DNA from: Candidatus Poribacteria bacterium
Lineage (GTDB): Bacteria; Poribacteria; WGA-4E; WGA-3G
Length of the DNA: 64,000 nucleotides
Assembly (NCBI GenBank): GCA_965220325.1
Contig: OZ244821.1
Span: 3,037,924-3,101,923 of the forward strand
Direction of reading: 5' to 3'
Position numbers and translations under genes: made by a program. Shown one piece after another: positions 2,214 to 52,296 of this stretch; position 1 is the first letter of the stretch; every line of letters starts with the position of its first letter. The notes under the pieces are model-generated. The model saw only the letters and a program-made list of their open reading frames with translations, was not told the origin of the DNA and did no database searches.

Positions 2214-2260
2214 GTTAAATTCCCCTTATTTTTTATGGATAGGACTTACGCATTTCCTCT

Positions 2261-2401
2261 TAAAGTCCCCCTGATAAGGGGGATTTAGGGGGTTAAATAC
2301 ATCGAATTAAAGTCCCCCTGATAAGGGGGATTTAGGGGGTTAAATACATCGAATTAAAGTCCCCCTGATAAGGGGGATTTAGGGGGTTAAATACATCGAA
2401 A
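2261..2401. repeat. Three perfect tandem copies of a 47-bp unit TAAAGTCCCCCTGATAAGGGGGATTTAGGGGGTTAAATACATCGAAT
   Basis: Read directly from the sequence, period 47 bp. Each unit holds a C5-TGATAA-G5 hairpin plus a second G5 run. It lies between the stop of the ECF-sigma gene and the start of the ABC permease gene. Confidence 0.9.
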
Positions 2402-2408
2402 TTACGGA

Positions 2409-5213
2409 TTAACGTTCCAAACGAAGCACACCACGATGCTCAGTGCCAACGTAAAAGGCATCTCTATCAACAACGAGAGACGTTATGGCACTTGGAATTT
2501 CAGGCACAATTTGTTCCCAAGTCCTTGTTTCCTTTGCTAAGTGATAGATGCCGTCGTCATTCGCGCCATAAACAGTGTCCTCTGTTGTTGCTAACGCCTT
2601 AATGATGGTGCTTTCTCCCGCGTTATCGGTGATTGCATTCCAAACAACGCCATCTTTTGAACTGAAAACGCCTTTGTCGGTTGCGACCTGAACCGTTGCG
2701 TCAGCAAAGACAATTTGATTGAAGCGTTCAACAGACAACGACAGATGTGGTGTAATGTCGTTCCAACTATCCCCACCATCAAGCGATTGGAAGAGCTGTC
2801 CGTCCCGTTTACCGACATAGACGGTCTCTCCTGAAACCGCAATTTTAAAACGTTGTGCCATGTTTTCACGTGTGAGTTCACAAGTCTCTTCAACGCCTGT
2901 ATCCGACCATCTTACGTCACCCGGATTCCATCGGAAGAGTTTATAGTTGTACTCCATGTAATACGTTTCGCCACTGATGGCGAAGCTGCCGTATAAACCC
3001 TCCAACATCAATGCGTAAGTGAGTTGACCATCGCCTTGTTCTCGACCCAACAATTTTAGAAAGCATTCTGCACCAAATCTCGGATTCTCGCGTATTGTCT
3101 GGGTTGATAAAGACTCAGAATTAACGTCTGGATCATCTGTAGAGCGGGTAAAGGTCATTTGGCCCTCTTGTCTCGGTAGCCGATAAGAATCAAAGGGGAA
3201 TGTCACTCCCTTGAACACCGTCCACATGAGACTTCCTGAATCTCGCGGAGGTGGTGTCTTTCCCTCTTCAAAAATATAACCCTCAACAGGCTCTAAACAA
3301 TTTTTATCTGGTACGAGATGATAATAAGCCGTCTCACAATTACGTCGAATTCCTTTTGCATACAGAACACCGTCGGCTTCGGAAATCTGTACAATTAGCG
3401 GCGTGTCTTCCCTATCTTTGAGTTTCGCATTGAACTTTGGTATTTCAAGCGTATACCTTGGTCGTAGGATGTCAACAGCAGTCCACGAGCTGCCTGCGTC
3501 TGTTGATTTGACGACACCCCCCGCAACCGTCGCGTACAAAGCCTTAGCTGCTTCTGAATTTGGACGCGTCTCTTCTAAACTGATTAAGTTATCCACGTGG
3601 CACTCAAACCTTGTATTGAATCGGTGCCAGGTTTCACCGCCGTCCCTTGAGCGATGGATGCCAGTGATGCCCCCTGTATAAAAGGTGTTTTCGTCTAAAG
3701 CGACAGCAGCGTTCACACTAAAAATCATGGGTGTAATGCCGGAGGATTCTGTGGAACGCCAAGTGTCTCCACAGTCTGTTGAGCGAGCCACAACGCCTTC
3801 CTCTCCACCTATCAGTAAGACGGTTTTTCCAGAGGCGACCAGTTTAATCGGCGGCAACGTTTTCATTAGAAGATTCCGGGCATCCGTGGGCGTTACATCT
3901 GTCCAAGAGTCGCCGCCATCGGTTGATCGGAAGACCCACCACGAATCCTTACGCATATCACACAAATTGTGGTAATTTTCACTTGGCGTTCCGTCCCCTT
4001 CAAATATATTTACTTCTACGGCGACATAGATAGTGTCTTCAGATACCACCAAAGAACGCACGACCACAGTATTGTCCACCGGCAACTGTAGGTGTTCCCA
4101 CGTTCCCGCGTTAAGACGGTAGATTCCGAGAGAGGTTCCGGCAAATAGCGTATCTCCGCTCAATTGTAGTGTATAAATTCCCGATTTCTGTGTGAAGCGG
4201 CTGTCTAAACCGTCATTCATGTTTTGCCATGAATTTCCTGCGTCATCAGATCGGAAAATACCTTTATTAAGGGTAACGTAAAAAGCATCTTCGGTAATCA
4301 GCAATTCCCTCACGTGTCCGTTTGGACAAGGACCGATAGCATTCCAAGTTTTGCCGTCATCGGTTGATGCGAACAACGTATCGGATGGAATTATATAAAG
4401 CGTGCCATCGTGTTCAGCAATAGGGATATCGCCTGCGGTCCCTTGACGCAAAAAATCGGTGTTGACAAGTTGCCATTCATTTTCACGCGCAGGCAATTTG
4501 TAAATGTTCTCATAACCCATCACTGCGTAGAGTGACCCATCCGAAGTTTTCGTTAGTGTCCCGACTGGTGCCGCCACGCCGGGTTCATTCATCTGAATCC
4601 ATTTCATAACATCCTCCATGATATCATCTGATACTTGGGAACTGCCCAAAGCTTCGCGAACGACAGGGGTCTCTTTTTGCAATCGTTTCCGGGCGCGGTG
4701 GAGTCGGCTCTTGATCGTGTTCGGCGACATCTCCAGAAAATCACCGATTTCTTCGCAACTCATCTCACTGAGATAGTGAAGTGCTACGACTGTCCGTTCG
4801 CGCTCCGTTAGTTTTTGCAGGAGGTATTCAACGATCTCGCGTTGCTTATCTGTTGCCGAGTTTTCGGTCTGTTCTGTCAGATATTGGGTGTAGAACAGTG
4901 CCTCTATCTCTGCTGTATCCATCGCCTCCAAAGATTGCATCGGGATTCTTTTCTCCGCAAGCCATGCGAGGGAACAGCGGGTAGCAATCATATAAAGCCA
5001 CCCTGAAAACCGGTTTGGGTCTCTCAGCGTTCCGAGTTTTTGGTAGGCTTTAAGGAAAGCGTCCTGCGTAATTTCTTCAGCGATTTGGTAATCTCTTACC
5101 CGGCGCCATAGGAATGCGTGTATCTGCTTCTCGTATTTTCTCACGAGTGCGGTGAAGGCACTTTCATCGCCTGCTAAGATACGTTCAACCCATTTCGCGT
5201 CGTCGTTTTTCAT
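2409..5213 (-). CDS. ECF (sigma-70 family) sigma factor fused to a C-terminal BNR/Asp-box beta-propeller domain
   Basis: 934 aa. The N-terminal 190 aa carry sigma70 region 2 (DAFLKAYQKLGTLRDPNRFSGWLYMIA) and region 4 (ERERTVVALHYLSEMSCEEIGDFLEMSPNTIKSRLHRARKRL). The remainder carries at least 8 S/T-x-D-x-G-x-T/S-W Asp-box motifs (STDDGKTW, SDDAGNSW, STDGGDSW, STDCGDTW, SRDGGETW, STDAGSSW, SLDGGDSW). No TM segment is apparent. The RBS GGAGGA precedes the ATG. Confidence 0.8.
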   Translation of the reverse strand: MKNDDAKWVERILAGDESAFTALVRKYEKQIHAFLWRRVRDYQIAEEITQDAFLKAYQKLGTLRDPNRFSGWLYMIATRCSLAWLAEKRIPMQSLEAMDTAEIEALFYTQYLTEQTENSATDKQREIVEYLLQKLTERERTVVALHYLSEMSCEEIGDFLEMSPNTIKSRLHRARKRLQKETPVVREALGSSQVSDDIMEDVMKWIQMNEPGVAAPVGTLTKTSDGSLYAVMGYENIYKLPARENEWQLVNTDFLRQGTAGDIPIAEHDGTLYIIPSDTLFASTDDGKTWNAIGPCPNGHVRELLITEDAFYVTLNKGIFRSDDAGNSWQNMNDGLDSRFTQKSGIYTLQLSGDTLFAGTSLGIYRLNAGTWEHLQLPVDNTVVVRSLVVSEDTIYVAVEVNIFEGDGTPSENYHNLCDMRKDSWWVFRSTDGGDSWTDVTPTDARNLLMKTLPPIKLVASGKTVLLIGGEEGVVARSTDCGDTWRSTESSGITPMIFSVNAAVALDENTFYTGGITGIHRSRDGGETWHRFNTRFECHVDNLISLEETRPNSEAAKALYATVAGGVVKSTDAGSSWTAVDILRPRYTLEIPKFNAKLKDREDTPLIVQISEADGVLYAKGIRRNCETAYYHLVPDKNCLEPVEGYIFEEGKTPPPRDSGSLMWTVFKGVTFPFDSYRLPRQEGQMTFTRSTDDPDVNSESLSTQTIRENPRFGAECFLKLLGREQGDGQLTYALMLEGLYGSFAISGETYYMEYNYKLFRWNPGDVRWSDTGVEETCELTRENMAQRFKIAVSGETVYVGKRDGQLFQSLDGGDSWNDITPHLSLSVERFNQIVFADATVQVATDKGVFSSKDGVVWNAITDNAGESTIIKALATTEDTVYGANDDGIYHLAKETRTWEQIVPEIPSAITSLVVDRDAFYVGTEHRGVLRLER

Positions 5214-5675
5214 GCGGATCCTCCAATCAACAATATTGACTTGTGATATGTGACAGGTATTATAGGGTGGTCGGTTGCAAATTCGTAATTTTGCGTCTAA
5301 ATACTCGATATTTGCGCAATTTGCGTCCGTCCTGATTAAATTATTTGCTTTTTTTCTAAAAATATCTTATAATATCAGTCAGATACAGTCTTTAATAATT
5401 TAATTATTGAAATTAAAAATTAAATTGACCGATTGTAACCCATTGGCGTGCCCGTTTGAAAAAGCGTCGCACAGTCAGTTTTTTCAACCCCAAAACCGAA
5501 TGTCTGAGAATAAAAATGCCAAGTAGATGCCTCAATACTAATATTACCAGATTGACTTTCCCCGCGCCCCGACTTGACAGTGTGTGTGGTGAGAGTGTGC
5601 ACTGCTGCTCAGGATATTCGTTGCTTCTGTGTATTATTAACTCAGAGTTAACTGTGTCATCTGCACGGTTAACAG

Positions 5676-5687
5676 CCCCCCCCCCCC
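5676..5687. repeat. Homopolymeric C12 tract in the divergent intergenic region, about 195 bp upstream of the giant adhesin gene
   Basis: 12 consecutive C residues counted in the sequence. Confidence 0.9.
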
Positions 5688-5747
5688 GCTTAACAATTAA
5701 TAAGTATTGTATTTTACAAAATAGTACAGCCTTCAAGGATGTCCTCT

Positions 5748-5800
5748 CTTTAGTCATGCCCGCGCGCGTTTCGTCTTGCACGGAACGTTTCGTCGCGGGC
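5748..5800 (+). promoter_or_regulatory. GC-rich hairpin (GCCCGCG...CGCGGGC, with an internal CGTTTCGTC direct repeat) followed by TGTTTTTATT. It is a terminator- or attenuator-like element in the leader of the giant gene.
   Basis: The inverted repeat and T-run were read from the sequence. It lies about 80 bp upstream of the TTG start at 5881. Confidence 0.35.
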
Positions 5801-5880
5801 TGTTTTTATTGCATTCGGCTTTTCTGAATGCGTCTTATCGCTACCACTTTCTATTGAATACCGATAAAGGAGTTTAGACC

Positions 5881-8800
5881 TTGCTATTGACAAACAAAAA
5901 ATGTATCGTATCAATTTTCCTAACCACTTTTATAGTTTTTTTAACACATATATCCGGTTACGCAGATATAACCCCTGTCCAGGATCGCACACCACAGATC
6001 CGGGATGCGATTGTTGCCGCAGTGCCAGGTGTTAACAGTGCCAACGATGTCACCGCAGCACACCTCGCAGCCATTGCAACCCTGGAGGCTTCCAATAAGT
6101 CAATCAGTGCTTTGAAAGCTGGAGATTTCGATGGCCTCACCGCGCTGACAACGCTCGATCTGTCTCGCAATACCATCAGCGATATATCTCTGCTTGGGAG
6201 CTTGACTGCACTGACGGCACTCGAACTGTCTCAGAATGCCATCACTGATATATCTGTTCTTAAGAAATTGACGAAACTCAGATGGCTCTTTCTATCTCAT
6301 AATGCCATCAGCGATATATCTCCGCTTAAGAACTTGACTGCACTGAAACATCTCTGGCTCGGTGGCAATGCCATCAAAGATATATCTGCGCTTGAGAAAT
6401 TGACGAAATTGAAAAAACTCTGGTTGTCTCGCAATGCTATCAGTGATATATCTGTGCTTGAGAAATTGACACCACTGACAGCACTCTGGCTGGATGGTAA
6501 TGCTATCAGCGATGTATCTGCGCTTGAAGGTCTAATCTCGTTAGTGAGTTTAAATCTCAGTGGCAATCCGATTTCGGATTACGGTCCGCTGCGTAGACTC
6601 AAAACCGCCAATCCGGATATAACCATTGATATTGATATTGATGAGAATGATAATAGCGCGCCTGTATTCACCGCTGGCAGTAGCACGACGCGGTCTGTTG
6701 CGGAGAACACGGCTTCCGGCACAAACATCGGCAGTGCGGTATCCGCGACAGATACCGATAATGATACCTTAACCTATACGCTGGGGGGTACGGATGCGGC
6801 TTCGTTTCGTATTGTTTCGACCTCGGGACAACTCCGAACCAATGCTGCACTGGATTATGAAACGAAATCGTCCTACTCCGTGACTGTCTCCGTTTCTGAT
6901 AGTAATGGTGGCAGCGATAGCATTCCTGTCACGATCAGTGTGACGAACGTCAACGAAGCACCTAACTTCGCCAGCAGCACCGCGACGCGTTCGATAGCAG
7001 AGAACACGGCATCTGGTACAAATATCGGGACTGCTATTACTGCGACAGATGTGGATACCGGCGATACACCAACCTATACACTGGGTGGCACGGATGCGAG
7101 TTCGTTTAGCATCGTCAGCACATCCGGTCAACTCCGAACCAACGCTGCATTGAATTATGAAACGAAATCGTCCTATTCCGTGACGGTCACTGCCAGGGAT
7201 GCGGGTAACCTCTCGGATACGATCAGTGTCACAATCAGCATCACAGATGTCAACGAGGCACCCAACTTCGCAAGCAGCACAGCGACGCGTTCGATAGCAG
7301 AGAACACGGCATCGGGACAAAACATCGGAGCTGCTGTGGCAGCGACAGATGTTGATGGCGACACCCTCTCCTATACGCTCGGTGGCACGGATGCGAGTTC
7401 GTTCAGTATCGTCAGCACATCCGGTCAACTCCGAACGAGTGCGGCTTTGGACCGTGAAACAAAAGCCTCCTACTCCGTGACAGTCACTGCCTCCGATGGG
7501 AGTCTATCGGATACGACCACCGTCACGATCAGTGTGACCAACGTCAACGAAGCACCTAACTTCGCAAGCAGCACAGCAACACGGTCCATAGCAGAAAACA
7601 CCGCCTCCGGTCAAAACATCGGCACCGCTCTCACTGCGACAGACCCAGATGGCGATACACTCTCCTATACGCTGGGTGGCACGGATGCGAGTTCGTTTAG
7701 CATTGTGTCCAATTCCGGTCAACTCCGAACGAGTGCGGCTTTGGACCGTGAAACAAAAGCCTCCTATTCCGTGACAGTCACTGCCTCCGATGGGAGTCTG
7801 TCGGATACGACCACTGTCACGATCAATGTGACGAACGTCAACGAAGCACCTGTATTCACAGAAGGTAGCACAGCGACGCGTTCGATAGCGGAGAACACGA
7901 CTTCCGGCACAAACATCGGAGCTGCTGTGGCAGCGACAGATGTCGATGGTGATACCCTCTCCTATACACTCGGTGGCACGGATGCGAGTTCGTTTAGCAT
8001 CGTCAGCACGTCTGGTCAACTCCGAACCAGTGCGGCTTTGGACCGTGAAACAAAAGCCTCCTACTCTGTGACAGTCACTGCCTCCGATGGGAGTCTGTCG
8101 GATACGACCACTGTCACGATCAATGTGACGAACGTCAACGAGGCACCCACTTTCGCAACTACCACAGCAACGCGCTCGGTCGCAGAGAACACGGCAGCCA
8201 ATCAAAACATCGGCGCAGCTTTCACCGCAACGGATGTCGATAGTGGGACTACGCTCACCTATTCGATCCCTACAACCGGGGATGCCGCAGCCTTCAGCAT
8301 CGTCAGCAATACAGGGCAACTGAAAACAAAGAATACCCTGAACTATGAAGTTAAAAACGCCTATACGGTTGTTGTGACGGCTTCCGATGGAAGTTTGACC
8401 GATACGATCACCGTCACGATCAGTGTCACAAACGTCAATGAGACACCGACGTTTGCTACCGGAACAACCATCAGTAGTATTTCTGCCACCAAAGGAACGG
8501 CAATCACCTCCGTGACCTTGCCAGCAGCAACGGACCCTGACGCGAACACTACTATCACATACACGGTGACACCGACACTCCCCGCCGGGTTGACATTTAC
8601 GCCTTCAACGCGTATCCTCTCAGGCACACCTACGGCTGTGTCGGCTTCAGCGACTTATACCTATACGGCGAGTGATAGCAACCTTTCAGACACTTTGACG
8701 TTCACAATTCAAGTGAACGCGCCTGCTAACAACGCACCGACGTTCACGGATGGCACCAGCACGACGCGCTCGGTCGCAGAGAACACCGCTTCAGGGCAAA

Positions 8801-11800
8801 ACATCGGCAGTGCCGTCGGCGCAACCGATACGGATAACGACACGCTCAGCTATACCCTCGGTGGCACCGATGCCGCATCTTTCAGTATCGTCAGCACGAC
8901 AGGACAACTCCAAACCAACACTGCCCTAAATTACGAAAGCAAGTCGTCTTATTCTGTGTCAGTGTCTGTCTCTGATAACAACGGCGGCAGCGATAGTATC
9001 GCTGTCACGATCAATGTGACGAACGTCAATGAGGCACCAAGTTTCGCAAGCACCACTGCGACACGTTCGATAGCAGAGAACACCGCAGCCAACACAAATA
9101 TCGGCGCGGCTGTTGCTGCGACAGATGTCGATGGCAACACCCTCTCCTATACACTGGGTGGCACGGACGCAAGCTCATTTAGCATCGTCAGCACGTCTGG
9201 TCAACTCCGAACCAGTGCAGCCCTGGACCGTGAAACAAAAGCCTCCTATTCCGTGACGGTCACTGCCTCCGATGGCAGCCTGTCGGATACGACCACCGTC
9301 ACAATCAATGTGACGAACGTCAACGAAGCACCTAACTTCGCGAGCAGCACCGCAACACGCTCCATAGCAGAGAACACCGCCTCCGGTCAAAACATCGGCA
9401 CTGCCGTTGCGGCGACAGACCCAGATGGCAACACCCTCTCCTATACACTGGGTGGCACGGATGCGAGTTCATTTAGCATCGTCAGCACGTCTGGTCAACT
9501 CCGAACCAGTGCTGCTTTGGACCGTGAAACAAAAGCCTCCTATTCTGTGACAGTCACTGCCTCCGATGGGAGTCTATCGGATACGATCACCGTCACGATC
9601 AATGTGACGAACGTCAACGAGGCACCTAACTTCGCAAGCACCACAGCAACACGCTCTATAGCGGAGAACACGGTTTCCGGTCGAAACATCGGGACTGCCG
9701 TCGCCGCAACGGATGTTGACCATACTTCACTTACCTATACGCTGGGTGGCACGGATGCGAGTTCGTTTAGCATCGTCAGCACGTCCGGTCAACTCCGAAC
9801 CAGTGCAGCCCTGGACCGTGAAACAAAAGCCTCCTATTCTGTGACAGTCACTGCCAGGGATGCGGGTAACCTCTCAGATACGATCACCGTCACGATCAAT
9901 GTGACGAACGTCAACGAGGCACCAAGTTTCGCAAGCACCACAGCAACACGCTCCATAGCGGAGAACACGGTTTCCGGTCGAAACATCGGGACTGCCGTCG
10001 CCGCAACGGATGTTGACCATACTTCACTCACCTATACTTTGGGTGGTACGGATGCGAGTTCGTTTAGCATCGTCAGCACGTCTGGTCAACTGCGAACCAG
10101 TGCGGCTTTGGACCGTGAAACAAAAGCCTCCTACTCTGTGACAGTCACTGCCAGGGATGCGGGTAACCTCTCGGATACGATCACTGTCACGATCAATGTG
10201 ACGAACGTCAACGAGGCACCAAGTTTCGCAAGCACCACTGCGACGCGCTCTATAGCAGAGAACACGGTTTCTGGTCGAAACATCGGGACTGCCGTCGCCG
10301 CAACGGATGTTGACCATACTTCACTCACCTATAGTCTTGGTGGCACGGATGCGAGTTCATTTAGCATCGTCAGCACGTCTGGTCAACTGCGAACCAGTGC
10401 TGCTTTGGACCGTGAAACAAAAGCCTCCTACTCTGTGACAGTCACTGCCAGGGATGCGGGTAACCTCTCGGATACGATCACCGTCACAATCAATGTGACG
10501 AACGTCAACGAGGCACCGAGTTTCGCAAGCACCACAGCAACACGCTCCATAGCGGAGAACACGGTTTCCGGTCGAAACATCGGCACTGCTGTATCTGCGA
10601 CAGATGTTGATGGCAACACGCTCACCTATAGTCTCGGTGGCACGGATGCGAGTTCGTTCAGTATCGTCAGCACATCGGGTCAACTCCGAACGAGTGCAGC
10701 TTTGGACCGTGAAACAAAAGCCTCATATTCTGTGACAGTCACTGCCAGGGATGCGGGTAACCTCTCGGATACGATCACCGTCACGATCAATGTGACAAAC
10801 GTCAATGAGGCACCAAGTTTCGCAACTACCACCGCGACGCGCTCGGTCGCAGAGAACACGGCAACCAATCAAAACATCGGCACAGCTCTCACCGCAACGG
10901 ATGTCGATAGTGGCACCACGCTCACCTATTCGATAGCGACAACCGGGGATGCCGCAGCCTTCAGCATCGTCAGCAATACAGGGCAACTGAAAACAAAGAA
11001 TACCCTGAACTATGAAGTTAAAAACGCCTATACGGTCGTTGTGACGGCTTCCGATGGAAGTTTGACCGATACGATCACCGTCACAATCAGTGTGACAAAC
11101 GTCAATGAGGCACCCACTTTCGCAACTACCACCGCGACGCGCTCGGTCGCAGAGAACACGGCAACCAATCAAAACATTGGCACGGCTCTCACCGCAACGG
11201 ATGTTGATAGTGGCACCACGCTCACCTATTCGATCCCGACAACCGGGGATGCCGCAGCCTTCAGCATCGTCAGCAATACAGGGCAACTGAAAACAAAGAA
11301 TGCCTTGAACCATGAAACAAAAGCCTCCTATACGGTCATTGTGACGGCTTCCGACGGAACTTTGTCAGATACCATCACCGTCACGATCAGTGTCACAAAC
11401 GTCAACGAAGCACCGAGTTTCAGCACTTCGGGGAGGGTCACGCTCTCCGTCGCAGAGAACACGGCAGCCAACACCAACATCGGCACCCCCTTCCAGGCAA
11501 CAGACCCCGATAGTGGGGATACAGTGACCTATTCGCTGCAGCGAGCCGATAAGACCTCGTTCCGTATTGACGCAAATACGGGGCAGCTGAAAACCCACGC
11601 GGCACTTGACTATGAAACGAAAAATTCTTACAGCAATCTCGCCGTCCGCGCGGCTGATAGCGGGGGTCTCGTCAGTAGCGTCCTTGTCACTGTCAACGTT
11701 ACAAATGTCAATGATAATTCCCCCGTGTTCACGGAGGGTGCCAGCACGACGCGGTCTATCGCAGAGAACACGGATTTCGGCACAAACATCGGAACTCCGG

Positions 11801-14778
11801 TCGCTGCGACGGATGCCGATAATGATACCCTCAGCTATACACTGGGCGGCACGAATGCATCCTCATTTTACATTATTGGCACATCCGGGCAGCTGAGAAC
11901 AGGCTCCGTCGCCTTGGATTATGAAACGAAATCGTCCTATTCGGTCACGGTCAACGTTTCTGATGGCAACGGTGGGAGTGATAGTATCGCTGTCACCATC
12001 AACGTTACAGATGTTGATGAATCGCCTGCAAACAGCGCACCGACCTTCACGGATGGCACCAGTACCACACGCACTGTTGCGGAGAACACCGCTTTAGGCA
12101 CCTACGTCGGAAGTGCGGTTGCTGCGACCGTTGCGAATAACGCCACACTCACCTATACGCTGAGTGGCGCGGATGCGGCCTCGTTTAGCATTGGCAGTGC
12201 CTCCGGGCAGATCCAAACAAATGCTGCCATGGATTATGAAGTCAAGAATTCCTACACCGTCACGGTTGACGTTTCTGGTAGCAATGGCGGGAGTGACAGT
12301 ATCACCGTCACCATCAATGTTACAGATGAAGCCGAATCCCCGATAGCACCGCCGCTCAGTGACCGCACGCCACAAGTGCGCGCTGCGATTGTTGCTGCAG
12401 CACCAGGCGTTAGCAATGTTGCTGATGTGACCGTAGCACACCTCGCAGCGATTGCCTCCCTGAATTTGTCGAATAGGTCAATCCGTTCTCTAAAAACTGG
12501 GGATTTCAATGGACTCACCGGAATGGGAGCACTCGATCTGCATCTCAACTCGATCAGTGATATATCTGCCCTGAGTGGATTGACCCAACTGAGACATCTT
12601 GATCTGGGCTTCAATTCGATCAGTGATATATCTGCCCTGAGTGGCATGACCTCAATGGTCAATCTCAGTCTGCTTAACAATTCGATCAGTGATATATCTG
12701 CCCTGAGTGGCATGACTTTGATGACAAGTCTCGGTCTGTCTAACAATTCGATCAGTGATATATCTGCCCTGAGTGGCATGACCTTGATAGACACTCTCAA
12801 TCTAACGAACAATAACGTTACGGATGTATCTGCCCTGAGTGGCATGACCTCGCTATTCATCTTATCTGTCGCAGGGAATCCGATTTCGGATTATGGTCCC
12901 CTCCGGACCCTCAAGGCAGCAAATCCGAATGCCCGCCTTGATATTAGCCTTAATAACAACCCACCCGTCTTCACTGAAGGCACCAGTGCCACGCGGTCTA
13001 TTGCAGAGAATACGGCATCTGGCACAAACATAGGCACTGCGGTTGCTGCGACCGATGCGGATAACCATACCCTTAGATATAGTTTGGGTGGCACGGATGC
13101 GGCTTCGTTCAGCATTGTCAGCACATCAGGACAGCTCCGCACAAATGCTGCCCTGGATTATGAAACGAAGTCCTCTTATGCTGTAACAATCACCGTTTCT
13201 GATGGAAATAACGGGGGTGATAGTATCAGCGTCACCATCAATGTTACAGATGTAGTTGAGCATGACCCCGTGTTCACGGATGGCGACACCACGACGCGGT
13301 CTGTTGCGGAGAACTCCGGTAGAGGCACCAACGTCGGAACTCCGGTGGCTGCGACCGATGCGAATACCGGCGACACACTCACCTATACGCTCGGTGGCAC
13401 CGATGCCGCATCGTTTAGCATTGTCTCCACATCCGGGCAGCTCCGAACCAATGCTACTCTGGATTATGAAACCAAGAGCTCCTACACTGTCACGGTTGAC
13501 GTTTCTGACGGTACTGGCGGGAGTGACAGTATCACCGTCACCATCAATGTTACAGATGTCGAGGAATCCACGATAACACCTGTAAAGGATCGCACGACGC
13601 AGGTACGGGATGCGATTGTTGCTGCGGTGTCAGGCGTTAGCAATGCTGACGATGTGACCGAAGCACACCTCGCAGCGATTACAGAATTGAATCTCGGATC
13701 AAAGTCAATCACTACGCTGAAGGCTGGCGATTTCAGTGGACTCACCGGACTCGAAACGCTCTATCTGGACAGCGAGTCGCCCAGTGATACACATAAAAAT
13801 TCGATCAGTGATATATCACCCCTTGAAGGCTTGACTACCCTGACAAGGCTCAATCTGCTTTACAATTCGGTCAGCGATATATCTGCGCTGAGTGGCATGA
13901 CTTCAATGAGCCAGCTTAATCTGGATAACAATTCGGTCAGTGATATATCTGCCTTGAGTGGCATGACTTCAATGACCATTCTCAGTATGAAGAACAATAA
14001 CGTTACGGATGTATCTCCCCTGAGTGGCATGACCACGATGTTCATCTTATCTGTCGCAGGGAATCCGATTTCAGATTACGCTACCCTCCGGACACTCCAG
14101 GCACATTCGCTTTGGGTACTTGATATTAGTCTTAATAACAACCCACCGACGTTCACCGATGGTGCCACCACCACGCGCTCGGTCGCCGAGAACACGGCAG
14201 CGGGACAAAACATCGGCAGTGCAGTCTCTGCGACGGATGCGAATAACCATACGCTCACCTATAGTCTCGGTGGCACGGATGCGGATTCGTTTAGCATCGT
14301 TTCCACCTCCGGGCAGCTCCAAACCAAAGCAGCACTCGACTATGAAACGAAGAACAGCTATACGGTAACAGTGACTGCTTATGACGGCAATAACGGTGGG
14401 GACAGAATCACCGTCACGATCAATGTCACCGACGTAGCAGCTGCTGCACCGGTTGTGCTAACACCGCCAGCACCCGTGCTGCCGAACACAACCGAGTTGC
14501 TGACAAACTTCCCGAACCCGTTCAACCCGGAGACGTGGATACCGTATCAGCTCGCCAAACCGGCAGATGTGACGCTAACCATCTACGATATCCGCGGTCG
14601 TATCGTGCGGACGTTGCGATTAGGGCACCAACCTGCAGGTTTCTACCAGAATCGGAGCAAGGCAGCGCATTGGGATGGACGAAATCATCTCGGTGAAAAG
14701 GTCGCCACAGGCGTGTATTTCTACACCCTCAAAGCCGGCGATTACATGGCAACCCGCAAGCTCTTGATACGGAAATAG
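5881..14778 (+). CDS. Giant secreted surface protein (2965 aa): signal peptide, 3 leucine-rich-repeat modules, about 25 cadherin-like repeats, C-terminal T9SS-type (Por_Secre_tail-like) sorting domain
   Basis: TTG start 8 nt after AAGGAG. The N-terminus is hydrophobic. LxxLxLxxNxISDIS 22-residue LRRs occur at aa 70-230 and again near nt 12360-12960 and 13560-14130. Each LRR module opens with DRTPQIRDAIVAAxPGV. There are about 100-aa repeats ending in NVTNVNEAP with TDVDGD calcium-binding-like motifs. The C-terminus GVYFYTLKAGDYMATRKLLIRK matches the T9SS C-terminal domain pattern. Confidence 0.9.
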   Translation: MLLTNKKCIVSIFLTTFIVFLTHISGYADITPVQDRTPQIRDAIVAAVPGVNSANDVTAAHLAAIATLEASNKSISALKAGDFDGLTALTTLDLSRNTISDISLLGSLTALTALELSQNAITDISVLKKLTKLRWLFLSHNAISDISPLKNLTALKHLWLGGNAIKDISALEKLTKLKKLWLSRNAISDISVLEKLTPLTALWLDGNAISDVSALEGLISLVSLNLSGNPISDYGPLRRLKTANPDITIDIDIDENDNSAPVFTAGSSTTRSVAENTASGTNIGSAVSATDTDNDTLTYTLGGTDAASFRIVSTSGQLRTNAALDYETKSSYSVTVSVSDSNGGSDSIPVTISVTNVNEAPNFASSTATRSIAENTASGTNIGTAITATDVDTGDTPTYTLGGTDASSFSIVSTSGQLRTNAALNYETKSSYSVTVTARDAGNLSDTISVTISITDVNEAPNFASSTATRSIAENTASGQNIGAAVAATDVDGDTLSYTLGGTDASSFSIVSTSGQLRTSAALDRETKASYSVTVTASDGSLSDTTTVTISVTNVNEAPNFASSTATRSIAENTASGQNIGTALTATDPDGDTLSYTLGGTDASSFSIVSNSGQLRTSAALDRETKASYSVTVTASDGSLSDTTTVTINVTNVNEAPVFTEGSTATRSIAENTTSGTNIGAAVAATDVDGDTLSYTLGGTDASSFSIVSTSGQLRTSAALDRETKASYSVTVTASDGSLSDTTTVTINVTNVNEAPTFATTTATRSVAENTAANQNIGAAFTATDVDSGTTLTYSIPTTGDAAAFSIVSNTGQLKTKNTLNYEVKNAYTVVVTASDGSLTDTITVTISVTNVNETPTFATGTTISSISATKGTAITSVTLPAATDPDANTTITYTVTPTLPAGLTFTPSTRILSGTPTAVSASATYTYTASDSNLSDTLTFTIQVNAPANNAPTFTDGTSTTRSVAENTASGQNIGSAVGATDTDNDTLSYTLGGTDAASFSIVSTTGQLQTNTALNYESKSSYSVSVSVSDNNGGSDSIAVTINVTNVNEAPSFASTTATRSIAENTAANTNIGAAVAATDVDGNTLSYTLGGTDASSFSIVSTSGQLRTSAALDRETKASYSVTVTASDGSLSDTTTVTINVTNVNEAPNFASSTATRSIAENTASGQNIGTAVAATDPDGNTLSYTLGGTDASSFSIVSTSGQLRTSAALDRETKASYSVTVTASDGSLSDTITVTINVTNVNEAPNFASTTATRSIAENTVSGRNIGTAVAATDVDHTSLTYTLGGTDASSFSIVSTSGQLRTSAALDRETKASYSVTVTARDAGNLSDTITVTINVTNVNEAPSFASTTATRSIAENTVSGRNIGTAVAATDVDHTSLTYTLGGTDASSFSIVSTSGQLRTSAALDRETKASYSVTVTARDAGNLSDTITVTINVTNVNEAPSFASTTATRSIAENTVSGRNIGTAVAATDVDHTSLTYSLGGTDASSFSIVSTSGQLRTSAALDRETKASYSVTVTARDAGNLSDTITVTINVTNVNEAPSFASTTATRSIAENTVSGRNIGTAVSATDVDGNTLTYSLGGTDASSFSIVSTSGQLRTSAALDRETKASYSVTVTARDAGNLSDTITVTINVTNVNEAPSFATTTATRSVAENTATNQNIGTALTATDVDSGTTLTYSIATTGDAAAFSIVSNTGQLKTKNTLNYEVKNAYTVVVTASDGSLTDTITVTISVTNVNEAPTFATTTATRSVAENTATNQNIGTALTATDVDSGTTLTYSIPTTGDAAAFSIVSNTGQLKTKNALNHETKASYTVIVTASDGTLSDTITVTISVTNVNEAPSFSTSGRVTLSVAENTAANTNIGTPFQATDPDSGDTVTYSLQRADKTSFRIDANTGQLKTHAALDYETKNSYSNLAVRAADSGGLVSSVLVTVNVTNVNDNSPVFTEGASTTRSIAENTDFGTNIGTPVAATDADNDTLSYTLGGTNASSFYIIGTSGQLRTGSVALDYETKSSYSVTVNVSDGNGGSDSIAVTINVTDVDESPANSAPTFTDGTSTTRTVAENTALGTYVGSAVAATVANNATLTYTLSGADAASFSIGSASGQIQTNAAMDYEVKNSYTVTVDVSGSNGGSDSITVTINVTDEAESPIAPPLSDRTPQVRAAIVAAAPGVSNVADVTVAHLAAIASLNLSNRSIRSLKTGDFNGLTGMGALDLHLNSISDISALSGLTQLRHLDLGFNSISDISALSGMTSMVNLSLLNNSISDISALSGMTLMTSLGLSNNSISDISALSGMTLIDTLNLTNNNVTDVSALSGMTSLFILSVAGNPISDYGPLRTLKAANPNARLDISLNNNPPVFTEGTSATRSIAENTASGTNIGTAVAATDADNHTLRYSLGGTDAASFSIVSTSGQLRTNAALDYETKSSYAVTITVSDGNNGGDSISVTINVTDVVEHDPVFTDGDTTTRSVAENSGRGTNVGTPVAATDANTGDTLTYTLGGTDAASFSIVSTSGQLRTNATLDYETKSSYTVTVDVSDGTGGSDSITVTINVTDVEESTITPVKDRTTQVRDAIVAAVSGVSNADDVTEAHLAAITELNLGSKSITTLKAGDFSGLTGLETLYLDSESPSDTHKNSISDISPLEGLTTLTRLNLLYNSVSDISALSGMTSMSQLNLDNNSVSDISALSGMTSMTILSMKNNNVTDVSPLSGMTTMFILSVAGNPISDYATLRTLQAHSLWVLDISLNNNPPTFTDGATTTRSVAENTAAGQNIGSAVSATDANNHTLTYSLGGTDADSFSIVSTSGQLQTKAALDYETKNSYTVTVTAYDGNNGGDRITVTINVTDVAAAAPVVLTPPAPVLPNTTELLTNFPNPFNPETWIPYQLAKPADVTLTIYDIRGRIVRTLRLGHQPAGFYQNRSKAAHWDGRNHLGEKVATGVYFYTLKAGDYMATRKLLIRK

Positions 14779-14788
14779 TTGTCAGTTA

Positions 14789-15084
14789 TTGTAAAGCCCG
14801 AAAATAGGTTGACATTTACCAAATCTCCAGATTCCCCCCTGATAAGGGGGGTTAGGGGGGTTCTACCGATTAAGGTGTCCAATTAATTATGGATTTCACT
14901 ATAAGAGGGAAACTTATCAATTACATTTCCCTCTTATTGTAAAGCCCGAAAATAGGTTGACCTTTACCGAATCTCCAGATTCCCCCCTGATAAGGGGGGT
15001 TAGGGGGGTTCTACCGATTAAGGTGTCCAATTAATTATGGATTTCACTATAAGAGGGAAACTTATCAGTCACATTTCCCTCTTA
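14789..15084. repeat. Two tandem copies of a 156-bp unit. Each contains CCCCCCTGATAAGGGGGGTTAGGGGGG and a 10-bp-stem hairpin AAGAGGGAAA-N16-TTTCCCTCTT.
   Basis: Read from the sequence immediately 3' of the giant gene stop. The copies differ at about 4 positions. They are related to the repeat at 2261-2401 by the C5-TGATAA-G5-TTAGGGGG core. Confidence 0.85.
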
Positions 15085-15375
15085 ACCGAAATGAAGATTA
15101 ATTTATTGCAGGCGGGGTGTTTTGCTGGGGTGTTTCTTCCAGTATCCCCGCCGAATTTTTGTGCTGTCCTTTTCACAACTCCTAAAACTTAATATATATT
15201 ACCTAAAATATGTATATAATTAAAACAATTCTCTAAAATTTTCGCAGCATTTCGCTAGATTTCGCAGCATTTCGCTACCAGAACGCTATGTTTTCCGAGA
15301 AATCTCATCTAACAGAACAGGCTACATTTACAACGGTAGAAAGGACAGTTTTTCTCGGAAAGCAAAAATAGATGA

Positions 15376-15404
15376 TTGACAAAATGGCGATGGTGTGTGA
15401 TAAT
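15376..15404 (+). promoter_or_regulatory. Sigma70-type promoter with extended -10: TTGACA-17 bp-(TGt)GATAAT
   Basis: -35 TTGACA at 15376-15381, 17-nt spacer, TG at 15396-15397, GATAAT at 15399-15404. It lies about 65 nt upstream of the ATG at 15472. Confidence 0.6.
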
Positions 15405-17235: not shown

Positions 17236-17265
17236 TCTTCGGATGGGTTGGAAGATTGGAAAGGG
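17236..17265 (+). promoter_or_regulatory. 29-bp element TCTTCGGATGGGTTGGAAGATTGGAAAGGG containing the direct heptad repeat TTGGAAG-A-TTGGAAA. A near-identical copy lies upstream of clpP.
   Basis: Matches 55646-55674 at 28 of 29 positions. Confidence 0.5.
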
Positions 17266-17271
17266 CATCGT

Positions 17272-17633
17272 ATGAAACATAATAAAGTGCAATGGGAACG
17301 GATGTTTCCTGACGAATTAGAAGCGGCGTTGGAGGCGTGTCCGATGGTGTATCTACCTTCAACGCGTCCTCCAGCCGCCGCGTCGGGGAACAGATGGTGG
17401 CAGATATTGTGGCGCATTTCGGGGAAAAGACGAAAGAATTGCTATCGGCATACAAAACGGAGGTGACGAATCATACGCCACTGACGTTTGACGATGTAGA
17501 AGGGATTTGGGAAGCCGAGATCCGACCGAAGTTGGCTGAATTCGCTTCCTTGCAACCCCCCGAACCGGCACCGCCATCCGATTCTCGATGGTATCCGAAC
17601 TCGCAAGTCCCTAAGAAAGGGCGGATACTTTAA
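17272..17633 (+). pseudogene. Two short overlapping ORFs in different frames (17272-17466 and 17337-17633). They may be a frameshifted gene remnant or non-coding.
   Basis: No single frame gives a convincing protein. The ORFs have atypical composition, and the region is flanked by repeat elements. Confidence 0.2.
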
Positions 17634-17660
17634 CAACATTAGGATTCACGTCTTCTATCT

Positions 17661-17765
17661 TAAAGTCCCCCTGATAAGGGGGATTTAGGGGGTTTAGATA
17701 AGGGGATTTAGAGAGTTTAGATAAGGGGATTTAGGGGGTTTAGATAAGGGGATTTAGAGGGTTTA
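17661..17765. repeat. Palindromic repeat family copy: TAAAGTCCCCCTGATAAGGGGGATTTAGGGGG followed by three degenerate 22-bp units TTTAGATAAGGGGATTTAGRGRG
   Basis: Read from the sequence. The core is shared with 2261-2401. Confidence 0.85.
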
Positions 17766-41263: not shown

Positions 41264-42219
41264 GAACAACATCTTCTGAATCCGATGCTCCACAATCATC
41301 AAGTGGACAATTTGATACTGTATCAAAACGCATTATTCAACAAGATCCGGAGGACTGGGTCCGGTTTGTGCTCGGCATACCCGAGGCTAAGGTTATTGAG
41401 ATTTTAGATACGGAGCAGCCGACTGTTAGAGGACATCGTGCCGACAGTTTTATACGTGTGGATATCCTCGGTCAAGAGGCTATCATGCATTTTGAGTTTC
41501 AGACGCGCGATAGTACGCTGATCCCGATGCCATACCGTGTGGTAGGCTACGCTGGTAGAGGTATTGAAACTTTTCAAATACCTGTCTATTCGCATGTTAT
41601 CTATCTGCATCCGGATGCTGGACGCAATGATCCAGGGGAATACATCCAAGACATGCCGGGGCATGAAATTACGATCAAATATAAGGTGATTAGACTCTGC
41701 AAAATTAAAGGACAAGACGTTTTGGATGCGAAATTGAAGGGGTTAATTCCTTTCGCACCGCTGATGAAGTCACCAGAGGCAATGGATTCTAATGAATGGT
41801 TGCGAGAGTGTATCCGGGTCGCTGATACTTTACCTATGGATGAACCGGATAAACCTGATTATCTTGCAAGTTTGGCGATTTTGGGTGGTTTAATATTGGA
41901 CTATCAAACCATTCGTGGAATTATATCGGAGGAAACTATGTACGAATCATCTGTTATTCAACACTTCACGGAACAAGGCATTGAACAAGGCATTGAACAA
42001 GGCATTGAACAAGGCATTGAACAAGGCGAAAGAAAGGGTGTTCTTGAATCTCTGCTGGATATATTAGAAAGTCAGTTTCAGCATAGTGAGGTGCAAACAC
42101 TAAAGCCGACACTCGAGCGTATTGAGGAATTACAGGACCTCAGGCAATTGCTGCGTGAGGCACTTCAAGTGAAAAGCCTTGATGAATTCAAAACCCTTTT
42201 GGCATCAAATGGAAGTTGA
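41260..42219 (+). CDS. Rpn-family recombination-promoting nuclease / putative transposase (PD-(D/E)XK, YhgA-like) with a C-terminal DUF4351-like region
   Basis: HFEFQTRD ... [11 protein letters not shown]-terminal pattern of the Transposase_31/Rpn family. The C-terminal (EQGI)n plus helical tail resembles DUF4351. Confidence 0.55.
41971..42027 (+). repeat. Perfect 12-bp tandem repeat (GAACAAGGCATT) x4.75 inside the Rpn-family gene, encoding (EQGI)n
   Basis: Read from the sequence. Confidence 0.9.
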
Positions 42220-48592: not shown

Positions 48593-48602
48593 TAATTGCT
48601 TG

Positions 48603-48687
48603 CCGGGATGCTGAAATTGGTAGACAGGCTAGGTTCAGGGTCTAGTGTGCATTATGCGCGTAAGGGTTCGAGTCCCTTTCCCGGCAT
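48603..48687 (+). tRNA. tRNA-Leu (anticodon CAG), class II with long variable arm
   Basis: Acceptor GCCGGGA/TCCCGGC, anticodon stem CTAGG/TCTAG with loop TTCAGGG, T-loop GGTTCGAGTCC. 85 nt. Confidence 0.85.
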
Positions 48688-51600: not shown

Positions 51601-51698
51601 TTAGGTGATTGGAAAAGCGTGTGAGGGCGACTTGCTGATGTCTGTTCCGTCCCTCGTTAGGGTGGTATCGCTTGTAAATGGATGCCCTTTATGCTTTT

Positions 51699-51774
<76 letters not shown>

Positions 51775-51797
51775 TCAAAATGGAACATTTAACACGA

Positions 51798-51871
<74 letters not shown>

Positions 51872-51904
51872 GTTTTCATATTGTTGATGGCAGCATTAAA
51901 ATAT

Positions 51905-51978
51905 GGTGGATGTAGCTCAGGGGTAGAGCACTTGACTGTGGATCAAGTGGTCGTGGGTTCAAATCCCATCATCCACCC
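51905..51978 (+). tRNA. tRNA-His (anticodon GTG)
   Basis: Acceptor GGTGGAT/ATCCACC. Anticodon stem CTTGA/TCAAG with loop CTGTGGA. T-loop GGTTCAAATCC. Confidence 0.85.
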
Positions 51979-51984
51979 TCATGA

Positions 51985-52057
51985 GCGTCCGTAGTTCAAT
52001 GGATAGAGCAATAGTCTTCGGAACTATAAGTTGGGGGTTCGAATCCCTCCGGACGCG
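51985..52057 (+). tRNA. tRNA-Arg (anticodon TCG)
   Basis: Acceptor GCGTCCG/CGGACGC. Anticodon stem ATAGT/ACTAT with loop CTTCGGA. T-loop GGTTCGAATCC. Confidence 0.75.
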
Positions 52058-52113
52058 AATACTTATGGATGCCGAGCGGGCACTTCAAAAGCAGTATAGC
52101 AGAATGAGCAAGT

Positions 52114-52186
52114 GCGCCGTTAGCTCAATTGGCAGAGCATCTGACTCTTAATCAGGCGGTTGAAGGTTCGATTCCTTCACGGCGCA
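52114..52186 (+). tRNA. tRNA-Lys (anticodon CTT)
   Basis: Acceptor GCGCCGT/ACGGCGC. Anticodon stem TCTGA/TCAGG with loop CTCTTAA. T-loop GGTTCGATTCC. Confidence 0.75.
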
Positions 52187-52210
52187 TCGTCGATAACGCG
52201 GACAGAATTC

Positions 52211-52296
52211 GGGCGGGTGCTGGAATTTGGTAGACAGGATAGACTTAGGATCTATTGGGGTTACGCCTCGTGAGGGTTCAAGTCCCTCCTCGCCCA
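52211..52296 (+). tRNA. tRNA-Leu (anticodon TAG), class II with long variable arm
   Basis: Acceptor GGGCGGG/CTCGCCC (one G-U pair). Anticodon stem ATAGA/TCTAT with loop CTTAGGA. T-loop GGTTCAAGTCC. 86 nt. Confidence 0.8.

Follow-up and report, generated by a model that had tools for sequence, protein, structure and literature searches.

The stretch of DNA analyzed here, hereafter the window, comprises 64,000 nucleotides of contig OZ244821.1 from a Candidatus Poribacteria bacterium (assembly GCA_965220325.1), considered to be a sponge symbiont, and contains at three loci a short repeat of C- and G-runs, CCCCCTGATAAGGGGG, referred to below as the core. The exact core occurs six times, in all cases on the + strand (at 2267, 2314, 2361, 14835, 14983, and 17667), compared with 0.02 occurrences expected by chance, so that the three-locus repeat family proposed in a first-pass annotation is real; a relaxed search of the 64 kb for a C-run, loop, G-run, loop, and G-run returned the same six cores and no further motif. 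Common to the three loci is a module of 26-27 nt with the layout C5-6/TGATAA/G5-6/3-5 nt/G5-6/TT, which is flanked by (A)AGT on the 5′ side and by TT on the 3′ side. The genes flanking the loci are typical of Candidatus Poribacteria, namely those for an ABC-2 permease, a sigma-70/BNR fusion, a 2965-aa cadherin/leucine-rich repeat (LRR) protein, and a PhyH dioxygenase, with best protein matches of 95-97% identity to proteins from metagenome-assembled genomes (MAGs) of Poribacteria. Locus 1 lies between two minus-strand genes, with its core antisense to both, and adjoins the stop codon (2409-2411) of the sigma-70/BNR gene. Loci 2 and 3 each lie between plus-strand genes, locus 2 beginning 8 nt past the stop codon (14778) of the giant plus-strand cadherin/LRR gene and locus 3 coming after the stop codon (17633) of a creatininase pseudogene remnant. 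Thus, the earlier description of all copies as sitting immediately after stop codons is accurate with respect to distance (0-8 nt), but locus 1 is antisense to its gene and locus 3 follows a pseudogene remnant.

Tandem Repeats Finder delineated an array at each locus. Locus 1 consists of 3.0 copies of a 47-bp unit (2260-2400, 100% identical), that is, the three perfect units originally described, and locus 2 of 2.0 copies of a 148-bp unit (14786-15084, 97% identical), the number of units having been correctly reported but the period having been given as 156 bp. Each of these units also contains a co-duplicated 28-bp local hairpin, AAGAGGGAAA-N13-TTTCCCTCTT, which was likewise recognized in both units but with a loop of 16 rather than 13 nt. 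Locus 3 contains a core with degenerate units, as annotated, but these are 23 bp and not 22 bp long and are present in 4.0 copies (17673-17765, 91% identical). In the predicted fold of the core, the C-run pairs with the proximal G-run, either G-run being possible as a partner, as had been pointed out; the predicted stem reaches ~10 bp in loci 1 and 3 (AAGUCCCCCU/AGGGGGAUUU, including one G-U pair), and the predicted stability is -13 to -17 kcal/mol per unit. Among 308 distinct motifs, the lengths of the C, G1, and G2 arms are equal in 223 (5/5/5, 6/6/6, or 4/4/4; r ~0.7), the first loop is TGATAA, TGACAA, or TGAGAA, and TT directly follows the core in 250. The equal arm lengths and the trailing TT therefore indicate that the second G-run is constrained together with the hairpin. 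No Rfam covariance model reached the gathering score at the three loci, where relaxing the cut-off to E<=10 added nothing but noise, and none matched in 18 loci from other phyla; a "Poribacteria-1" motif, considered as a candidate, also gave no match. A literature search did not find the core sequence in any paper.

In Poribacteria, the core was found to be embedded in at least three carrier contexts. Family a is a MITE (miniature inverted-repeat transposable element) with 33 distinct full copies of ~90, 100, or 120 bp, none containing an open reading frame (ORF); its terminal inverted repeats (TIRs) are 12-13 bp long, (T)AGGACTTACGCA and TGCGTAAGTCCT(G), and its 5-bp target duplication shows 85% identity in the best register over the 33 elements. 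Locus 1 is a copy of family a, of which only the left TIR is kept and the right half is absent. The orthologous site in L208 (90% ortholog) is empty, with a single ACGGA (...TTTTTTACGGATTAACG...), and in L207 (93% ortholog) the insert is present with one 47-bp unit, compared with three in the window. The left end of locus 3, a degenerate left TIR, is 87% identical to that of locus 1 over 55 nt, and the locus is absent at the orthologous site in both L211 and L209, with 21 nt of other sequence found there. Locus 2 belongs to a second carrier, family b, which is palindromic, with the core at the center and imperfectly inverted ends (TTATTGTAAAGCCC... and ...GGATTTCACTATAA), and the flanks of which are also found in L094 and L114, ending at ACTATAA; relatives either lack the whole 10-kb segment around locus 2 or have other neighbors, so that there is no comparable site for this locus. 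What has been inserted at the loci, in a lineage-specific manner, are small elements without an ORF, the copy number of which changes once they are in place. The proposed REP/MITE-like dispersed family is borne out by the many copies elsewhere, the presence/absence polymorphism, and the target-site duplication.

The search for the core was also carried out genome-wide, with one genome per species and the 22-nt pattern CCCCCTGATAAGGGGG-N3-4-AGGGGG, and revealed copies elsewhere, placed without a gene-end bias. At least 117 stretches matched this pattern, which demands a TGATAA loop; among the matches listed, ~80 were from Poribacteria and 37 from other bacteria, including Nitrospirales, Nitrospinota, Chloroflexota, several Patescibacteria, Rickettsiales, Geobacter, Gallionella, and Zixibacteria. 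The motif is therefore not specific to this lineage, as had been supposed, being present in well over ten others. Phage as a vector was rejected, the pattern having been found in only 4 of 2.9 million viral contigs. With arrays collapsed and gene contexts taken from a crude longest-ORF caller, the poribacterial sites in this sample were sense co-directional in 33 cases, antisense co-directional in 20, convergent in 14, divergent in 10, and inside ORFs in 3. Core placement is roughly as unbiased intergenic insertion would give, with no preference for orientation or gene 3′ ends.

Outside the window, the core is associated with a gene. In six loci selected by the motif (L032, L049, L057, L077, L088, and L101), an ORF of ~115 aa matching DUF559 (PF04480, E=2e-31) lies directly against the core, and the usual arrangement is core, ORF, and inverted core, forming minigenes of ~430 bp. 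A protein search with the DUF559 domain alone, with the motif left out of the query, yielded 554 homologs at E<=1e-10. Over the 119 best anchorable homologs of these 554, the peptide PPDKGG(K)GG, which is the translation of CCCCCTGATAAGGGGGGCAAGGGGGG, directly precedes the domain start YIPYN in 75, the C-terminal end is a translated inverted motif in 74 (..KPPKSPLSGG, or ..KTP with the stop codon inside the motif), and the left motif is tandemly repeated in 21. Furthermore, in 80 metagenome loci picked by protein alone, triple-run motifs are enriched 26-fold at up to 150 nt from the ORF relative to the remaining sequence of these loci (p=6e-58), with at least one such motif in 54 of the 80. 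The left and right ends co-vary (within-element match 0.62 vs. between-element match 0.39, permutation p=2e-4), and more distant DUF559 clades have other motif sequences in the same architecture. The core module, as an inverted pair, thus forms the ends of DUF559 minigenes in many phyla, including Poribacteria. In the poribacterial locus L119, which shares a 3.57-Mb contig with a 90% ortholog of the ABC-2 gene of the window, an intact DUF559 gene is bracketed by a left array of 27 bp x3.9 and a right array of ~900 bp of 43-bp units, a tandem amplification of the same kind as in the window; L088 is a 5′-truncated DUF559 copy, and L101 is an internal-deletion remnant retaining both ends and 19 codons.

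Conservation of the core merely as code for the peptide PPDKGGKGG was rejected, since the core recurs as its reverse complement at the right end, since its orphan copies do not code for protein, and since the protein is intact in L118 although the coding copy there reads RPDNEHQGG after decay. In this last locus (2930-3075), the motif adjoining the domain has become AGACCTGATAACGAGCACCAAGGCGG, and an intact motif lies ~100 nt upstream; the protein can therefore dispense with PPDKGGKGG. Two further peculiarities of the DUF559 loci were observed. In L032 (1-1973), a Paludibacter MAG contig with a coverage of 275, a single open frame extends over the entire contig, spanning an N6/N4 DNA methylase, three core-motif clusters, and a complete DUF559 domain, so that the cassette lies in frame inside the methylase gene. 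In L049, L077, L032, and many other DUF559 loci, there is no ATG, GTG, or TTG between the left motif and the YIPY start, and the domain opens with TAT-ATY-CCC-TAC right after GGGGGGTT; these copies possibly use an ATT/ATC start behind the G-run as a Shine-Dalgarno sequence, or are translated by fusion or coupling.

Repeats of the BoxC/PIT/TMECO type have been known since the 1990s, and we know of no origin, mobility mechanism, or function assigned to them. An earlier reference for this class is Hoyne et al. 2000. DUF559/YcjD is a very widespread family of small nucleases to which no function has been assigned. BoxC, PIT, and TMECO have been described as G/C-rich class II (C-G-G) intrastrand triplex motifs occurring in E. 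coli as well as in other bacteria, with the TMECO consensus being CCCTCNCCC-N3-6-GGGNGAGGG-N3-GGGNGAGGG (Holder et al. 2015, PMC4666352). Motifs of the TMECO type are always intergenic, show no strand bias, sometimes form inverted pairs, and are tied to rearranged loci, and no transposase, integrase, or mobility gene has been found near BoxC, PIT, or TMECO (PMC4666352). The elements in the window resemble this class in having a C-arm, a G-arm, and an equal-length G-arm on one strand (5/5/5 or 6/6/6), loops within the range of 1-6 nt (TGATAA, 6; ATTTA, 5; or TTA, 3), and, at locus 2, the TTA second loop of TMECO type A, as well as in being intergenic, without strand bias, frequently in inverted pairs, at rearranged loci, and without known function. 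They differ in that their arms consist only of C5-6/G5-6, in place of the 9-nt CCCTCNCCC/GGGNGAGGG, the sequences being unrelated and the architecture alone being common; in that the core is found in Poribacteria and many non-proteobacterial phyla; and in that it rides MITE carriers with a target duplication, forms tandem arrays, and brackets DUF559 genes. Within the BoxC/PIT/TM class, the element can be regarded as a variant with shorter arms that is borne by MITEs in Poribacteria, and it is new.

Other known systems show partial likeness. As in the case of repetitive extragenic palindromic (REP) sequences and REPINs with their REP-associated tyrosine transposases (RAYTs), the core is a short G/C-rich intergenic palindrome found singly, in inverted pairs, or in clusters, with a small nuclease gene between inverted repeats and co-variation of the repeat variant and gene clade; unlike REPs, it lacks the GTAG/CGTC tag and has an extra conserved G-run, and the flanked gene encodes DUF559 (YcjD-like, a predicted PD-(D/E)XK nuclease related to Vsr) and not an HUH Y1 transposase. 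A tblastn search with E. coli RayT gave no match in the window and 3 weak matches among the 117 loci listed, each of them at a distance of over 1.5 kb from any core; the suggested cognate RAYT is thus absent from the window and does not adjoin cores elsewhere in that sample, the associated gene being DUF559. Weak similarities to RAYT/IS200-like Y1 transposases occur in three poribacterial loci (L109 7095-7370, L026 7146-7409, and L082 5593-5718), likewise over 1.5 kb away from the cores. With bacterial MITEs such as Correia, ERIC, and Nezha, loci 1 and 3 share 12-13-bp TIRs, a 5-bp target duplication, a size of 90-120 bp, and insertion polymorphism, but no cognate insertion sequence (IS) was found in the sampled loci, the conserved internal module is common to unrelated carriers and DUF559 cassettes, and the copies in the window have undergone truncation as well as internal amplification. 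Free-standing homing endonucleases (Vsr-like/EDxHD) offer a further parallel: the DUF559 cassettes are compact with a minimal nuclease ORF, occur as intact, truncated, and internally deleted forms (L119, L088, and L101), and in L032 lie in frame inside a DNA methylase gene. However, homing is no more than a possibility here, and what flanks DUF559 is an inverted structured repeat also found dispersed in many copies, which is atypical of homing sites. A CRISPR array was rejected, in line with the first-pass annotation, the inter-core "spacers" being identical within each array; a type III antitoxin array was likewise rejected, given these identical "spacers" and the lack of a ToxN-like neighbor.

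In E. coli, a member of the DUF559 family and a member of the repeat class are found side by side. The nearest NCBIfam model of the subfamily is E. coli YcjD (NF007294), with a match below the curated cut-off; the assignment of YcjD-like proteins to the Vsr-related PD-(D/E)XK nucleases is no more than a prediction (PMC1189080). In strain K-12 (L200 6204-6840, corresponding to 1,351,204-1,351,840), the stop codon TGA of ycjD lies in the loop of a C-rich/G-rich hairpin, CCCTCTCCC-TGAAAGAGC-GAGGGGG, and the TMECO listed as no. 9 in the published table (1,351,239-1,351,204) lies 168 nt downstream of the gene; the chance of such proximity is roughly estimated as ~0.003 from 18 TMECO sites in 4.6 Mb. 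The gene occupies a site that holds the eefRABCD operon in other E. coli lineages (PMC12817139). A palindrome with a 14-bp stem (CCTCATTCTGACAA...TTGTCAGAATGAGG) was also observed just upstream of the ycjD start in K-12. No papers linking DUF559, YcjD, or COG2852 to BoxC, PIT, or triplex motifs were found, and the link between DUF559 and the repeats appears to be new.

Taken together, the three loci are likely to be decaying copies of non-autonomous mobile elements, the core of which probably promotes amplification and, when folded, may be recognized by DUF559 nucleases. In single-stranded or supercoiled DNA, the core could form a hairpin, and the second G-run could then act as an alternative partner or a third strand. 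Purine-motif triplexes do not form in RNA (PMC4666352), and a role at the DNA level would therefore be implied if the third arm acts as a third strand. At loci 1 and 3, the module is carried by a TIR-bounded MITE inserting with a 5-bp target duplication, and at locus 2 by the second, palindromic carrier. The structure-prone core would promote local tandem amplification into 47-, 148-, and 23-bp units, presumably through slippage or unequal exchange, and probably also rearrangement. A DUF559 nuclease recognizing the folded motif may use homing-like repair to carry the gene encoding it into copies of the motif, or may act in trans to maintain and mobilize the motif, in the way that RAYT acts on REPs. 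The elements themselves would have no dedicated cellular function and may be neutral or selfish DNA, affecting genome stability as a side effect. The more general proposal that DUF559/YcjD-like nucleases are the cognate enzymes of C-G-G repeats (BoxC/PIT/TMECO and C5-G5-G5), driving spread, amplification, and instability across phyla including in E. coli, is put forward only tentatively, as something that could well turn out otherwise.

Several points weigh against this interpretation. With respect to mobility, the family-a TIRs and target duplication point to a transposase rather than to DUF559, and such an enzyme probably moved loci 1 and 3, so that any role of DUF559 at these loci would be no more than indirect. 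Among the distant TIR pairs of the sampled loci, none belonged to a transposase with family-a ends; an IS element with such ends was rejected as a candidate, the pairs enclosing CBM9/DUF5916, M81 peptidase, and ABC-2 genes. Around poribacterial DUF559 cassettes, in turn, family-a TIRs were not found. With respect to the nuclease, tblastn detected no DUF559 in the window, where the copies are without an ORF, and DUF559 remnants are present in only 2 of the ~80 poribacterial motif loci listed, so that the link for the three loci is one of core identity alone. With respect to the loci themselves, an internal deletion is a putative origin of the TIR-less right end of locus 1, the junction GAAATT/ACGGA being compatible with what may have been a later microhomology deletion, and locus 3 is a replacement and not a clean insertion. 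The arms reach the 6-nt threshold for triplex motifs (ITxF; 9 nt for TMECO) at locus 2, but are only 5 nt long at loci 1 and 3. Finally, the listed sample is biased by the TGATAA loop that the scan demanded and its gene contexts by the crude ORF caller, and some of the cross-phylum matches could be binning errors in sponge metagenomes.

According to an alternative proposal, the elements are ordinary MITEs unrelated to DUF559, with families a and b moved by a DDE-type transposase, the core being a passenger hairpin, and the resemblance of the DUF559 ends resulting from cassettes inserting into or capturing a common repeat. It overlaps with the interpretation above on the insertion of loci 1 and 3 and differs solely on whether DUF559 acts on the core. 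The TIRs, 5-bp target duplication, and discrete size classes of family a fit this proposal, as do the DUF559 cassettes without family-a TIRs and the many cores, in fact the majority, without DUF559 nearby. However, no transposase with family-a TIRs was found in the sampled loci, and the core occurs in at least three unrelated carriers and many phyla, with a DUF559/motif junction that does not change from phylum to phylum; this makes the core a module conserved in its own right and not a chance passenger, and we regard the ordinary-MITE explanation as rather unlikely.

An intrinsic terminator or mRNA 3′-end stabilizer, in which the G/C hairpin would act either by ending transcription or as a barrier to exonucleases, was also suggested at first. 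The stable hairpin and the distance of 0-8 nt from a stop codon at all three loci are what such a device would show, and at locus 1 the minus-strand hairpin is followed by CTTTAATT, giving a weak terminator-like call. At loci 2 and 3, however, it is the opposite strand that the transcripts contain, and there the hairpin is followed by ATTTAGGGGG or TTAGGGGGG, without a U-tract and without a call, and the terminator-like calls in the region as a whole do not exceed those in shuffles (22 vs. 18.2). The mixed orientation (33 vs. 20) and the occurrence in all gene arrangements, with 10 sites between divergent genes, argue against a terminator, and neither an orientation nor a 3′-end preference is seen. 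Furthermore, the conserved second G-run and the trailing TT would have no role, the elements are absent at the same gene ends in close relatives, and PIT/BoxC showed neither promoter nor terminator activity in E. coli (PMC4666352). The terminator or RNA-stability cassette is thus improbable.

Regulatory G-quadruplexes, by which arrays with four or more G-runs would affect replication or expression, are more improbable still: locus 1 does have six G5 runs on one strand, locus 3 six G4-5 runs, and locus 2 four G6 runs, but the unit elsewhere consists of two G-runs and an equal-length C-run competing by Watson-Crick pairing, single units are the commonest state, loops of 30-120 nt separate the G-run pairs in loci 1 and 2, and the arrays are recent and variable between relatives. 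Least probable of all are domesticated protein-binding or nucleoid-organizing sites kept for a host function, comparable to REP/BIME (bacterial interspersed mosaic element) sites binding gyrase or integration host factor, since the intergenic location and high conservation of the core across copies are offset by presence/absence in close relatives, variable copy number, and no conserved position relative to genes.

The coordinates of the cores, carriers, and associated features in the window are summarized in Table 1.

Table 1. Core motifs, carrier elements, and associated features in the window
Feature	Position	Strand	Sequence or remark
Left target-site duplication, locus 1	2235-2239	+	ATGGA, one mutation from ACGGA; register fits 33 family-a elements
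Locus 1, family-a MITE copy	2240-2403	+	Left terminal repeat TAGGACTTACGCA (2240-2252), core, 47-bp unit x3, end at ...CATCGAAATT
Core 1	2267-2292	+	CCCCC TGATAA GGGGG ATTTA GGGGG; arms 5/5/5
Core 2	2314-2339	+	Same sequence as core 1
Core 3	2361-2386	+	Same sequence as core 1
Right target-site duplication, locus 1	2404-2408	+	ACGGA; abuts stop codon 2409-2411
Solo right half of family-a MITE	5288-5335	+	TTTTGCGTCTAAATACTCGATATTTGCGCAATTTGCGTCCGTCCTG; without core; edge of segment absent from L209
Locus 2	14786-15084	+	Two tandem 148-bp units, each a ~120-bp family-b element and the co-duplicated 10-bp-stem hairpin
Core 4	14834-14860	+	CCCCCC TGATAA GGGGGG TTA GGGGGG; arms 6/6/6, second loop TTA
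Hairpin AAGAGGGAAA-N13-TTTCCCTCTT	14903-14935	+	Local flank; outside the family-b element in other genomes
Core 5	14982-15008	+	Same sequence as core 4
Second copy of hairpin AAGAGGGAAA-N13-TTTCCCTCTT	15051-15083	+	
Locus 3	17640-17765	+	Degenerate family-a left end TAGGATTCACGTC, one core, ~4 degenerate 23-bp units GATAAGGGGATTTAGRGRGTTTA
Core 6	17667-17692	+	CCCCC TGATAA GGGGG ATTTA GGGGG

The surroundings of the loci show further rearrangement and repeats. A 10-kb segment (5291-15358), containing the gene for the 2965-aa cadherin/LRR/FlgD-Ig protein and locus 2, is absent from the close relative L209, in which ~175 nt are found instead and the PhyH protein is 97% identical to that of the window; its left edge coincides with the solo family-a right half, and its right edge lies ~270 bp past the locus 2 array. 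The giant cadherin/LRR gene, which starts at 5881, has ~195 nt before it a C12 homopolymer (5676-5687), a candidate slippage or phase-variation tract. Upstream of the PhyH gene there is a perfect 20-bp direct repeat (15240-15277; TTTCGCAGCATTTCGCTAGA, x1.9), and orthologs (580 aa) place the true start of PhyH near 15472 and not at the TTG at 15376. The creatininase remnant next to locus 3 (17258-17634) matches L211 3368-3470 and 4004-4280, with an internal deletion of ~530 bp, and the ORF at 17337-17633, regarded earlier as the gene preceding locus 3, represents a C-terminal fragment of this creatininase. Elsewhere in the window, a perfect tandem repeat (41971-42027; 12 bp x 4.8, GAACAAGGCATT), a six-tRNA cluster (51698-52296; Pro, Arg, His, Arg, Lys, Leu), and a separate tRNA-Leu (48601-48687) were observed.

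If the proposed role of DUF559 is true, it would represent a partnership of the REP/RAYT kind in which a Vsr-related nuclease of the predicted PD-(D/E)XK type takes the place of the HUH transposase. The nuclease and the repeats are tied together by the fixed junction, the co-varying ends, the 26-fold enrichment, and the position of the sole E. coli DUF559 gene next to a TMECO, and questions regarding both the repeat and the nuclease therefore become testable in E. coli. In Poribacteria, the core elements abundantly give rise to insertions and tandem amplification, and probably also to insertions and deletions on the kilobase scale, beside surface-protein genes of the symbiosis type.

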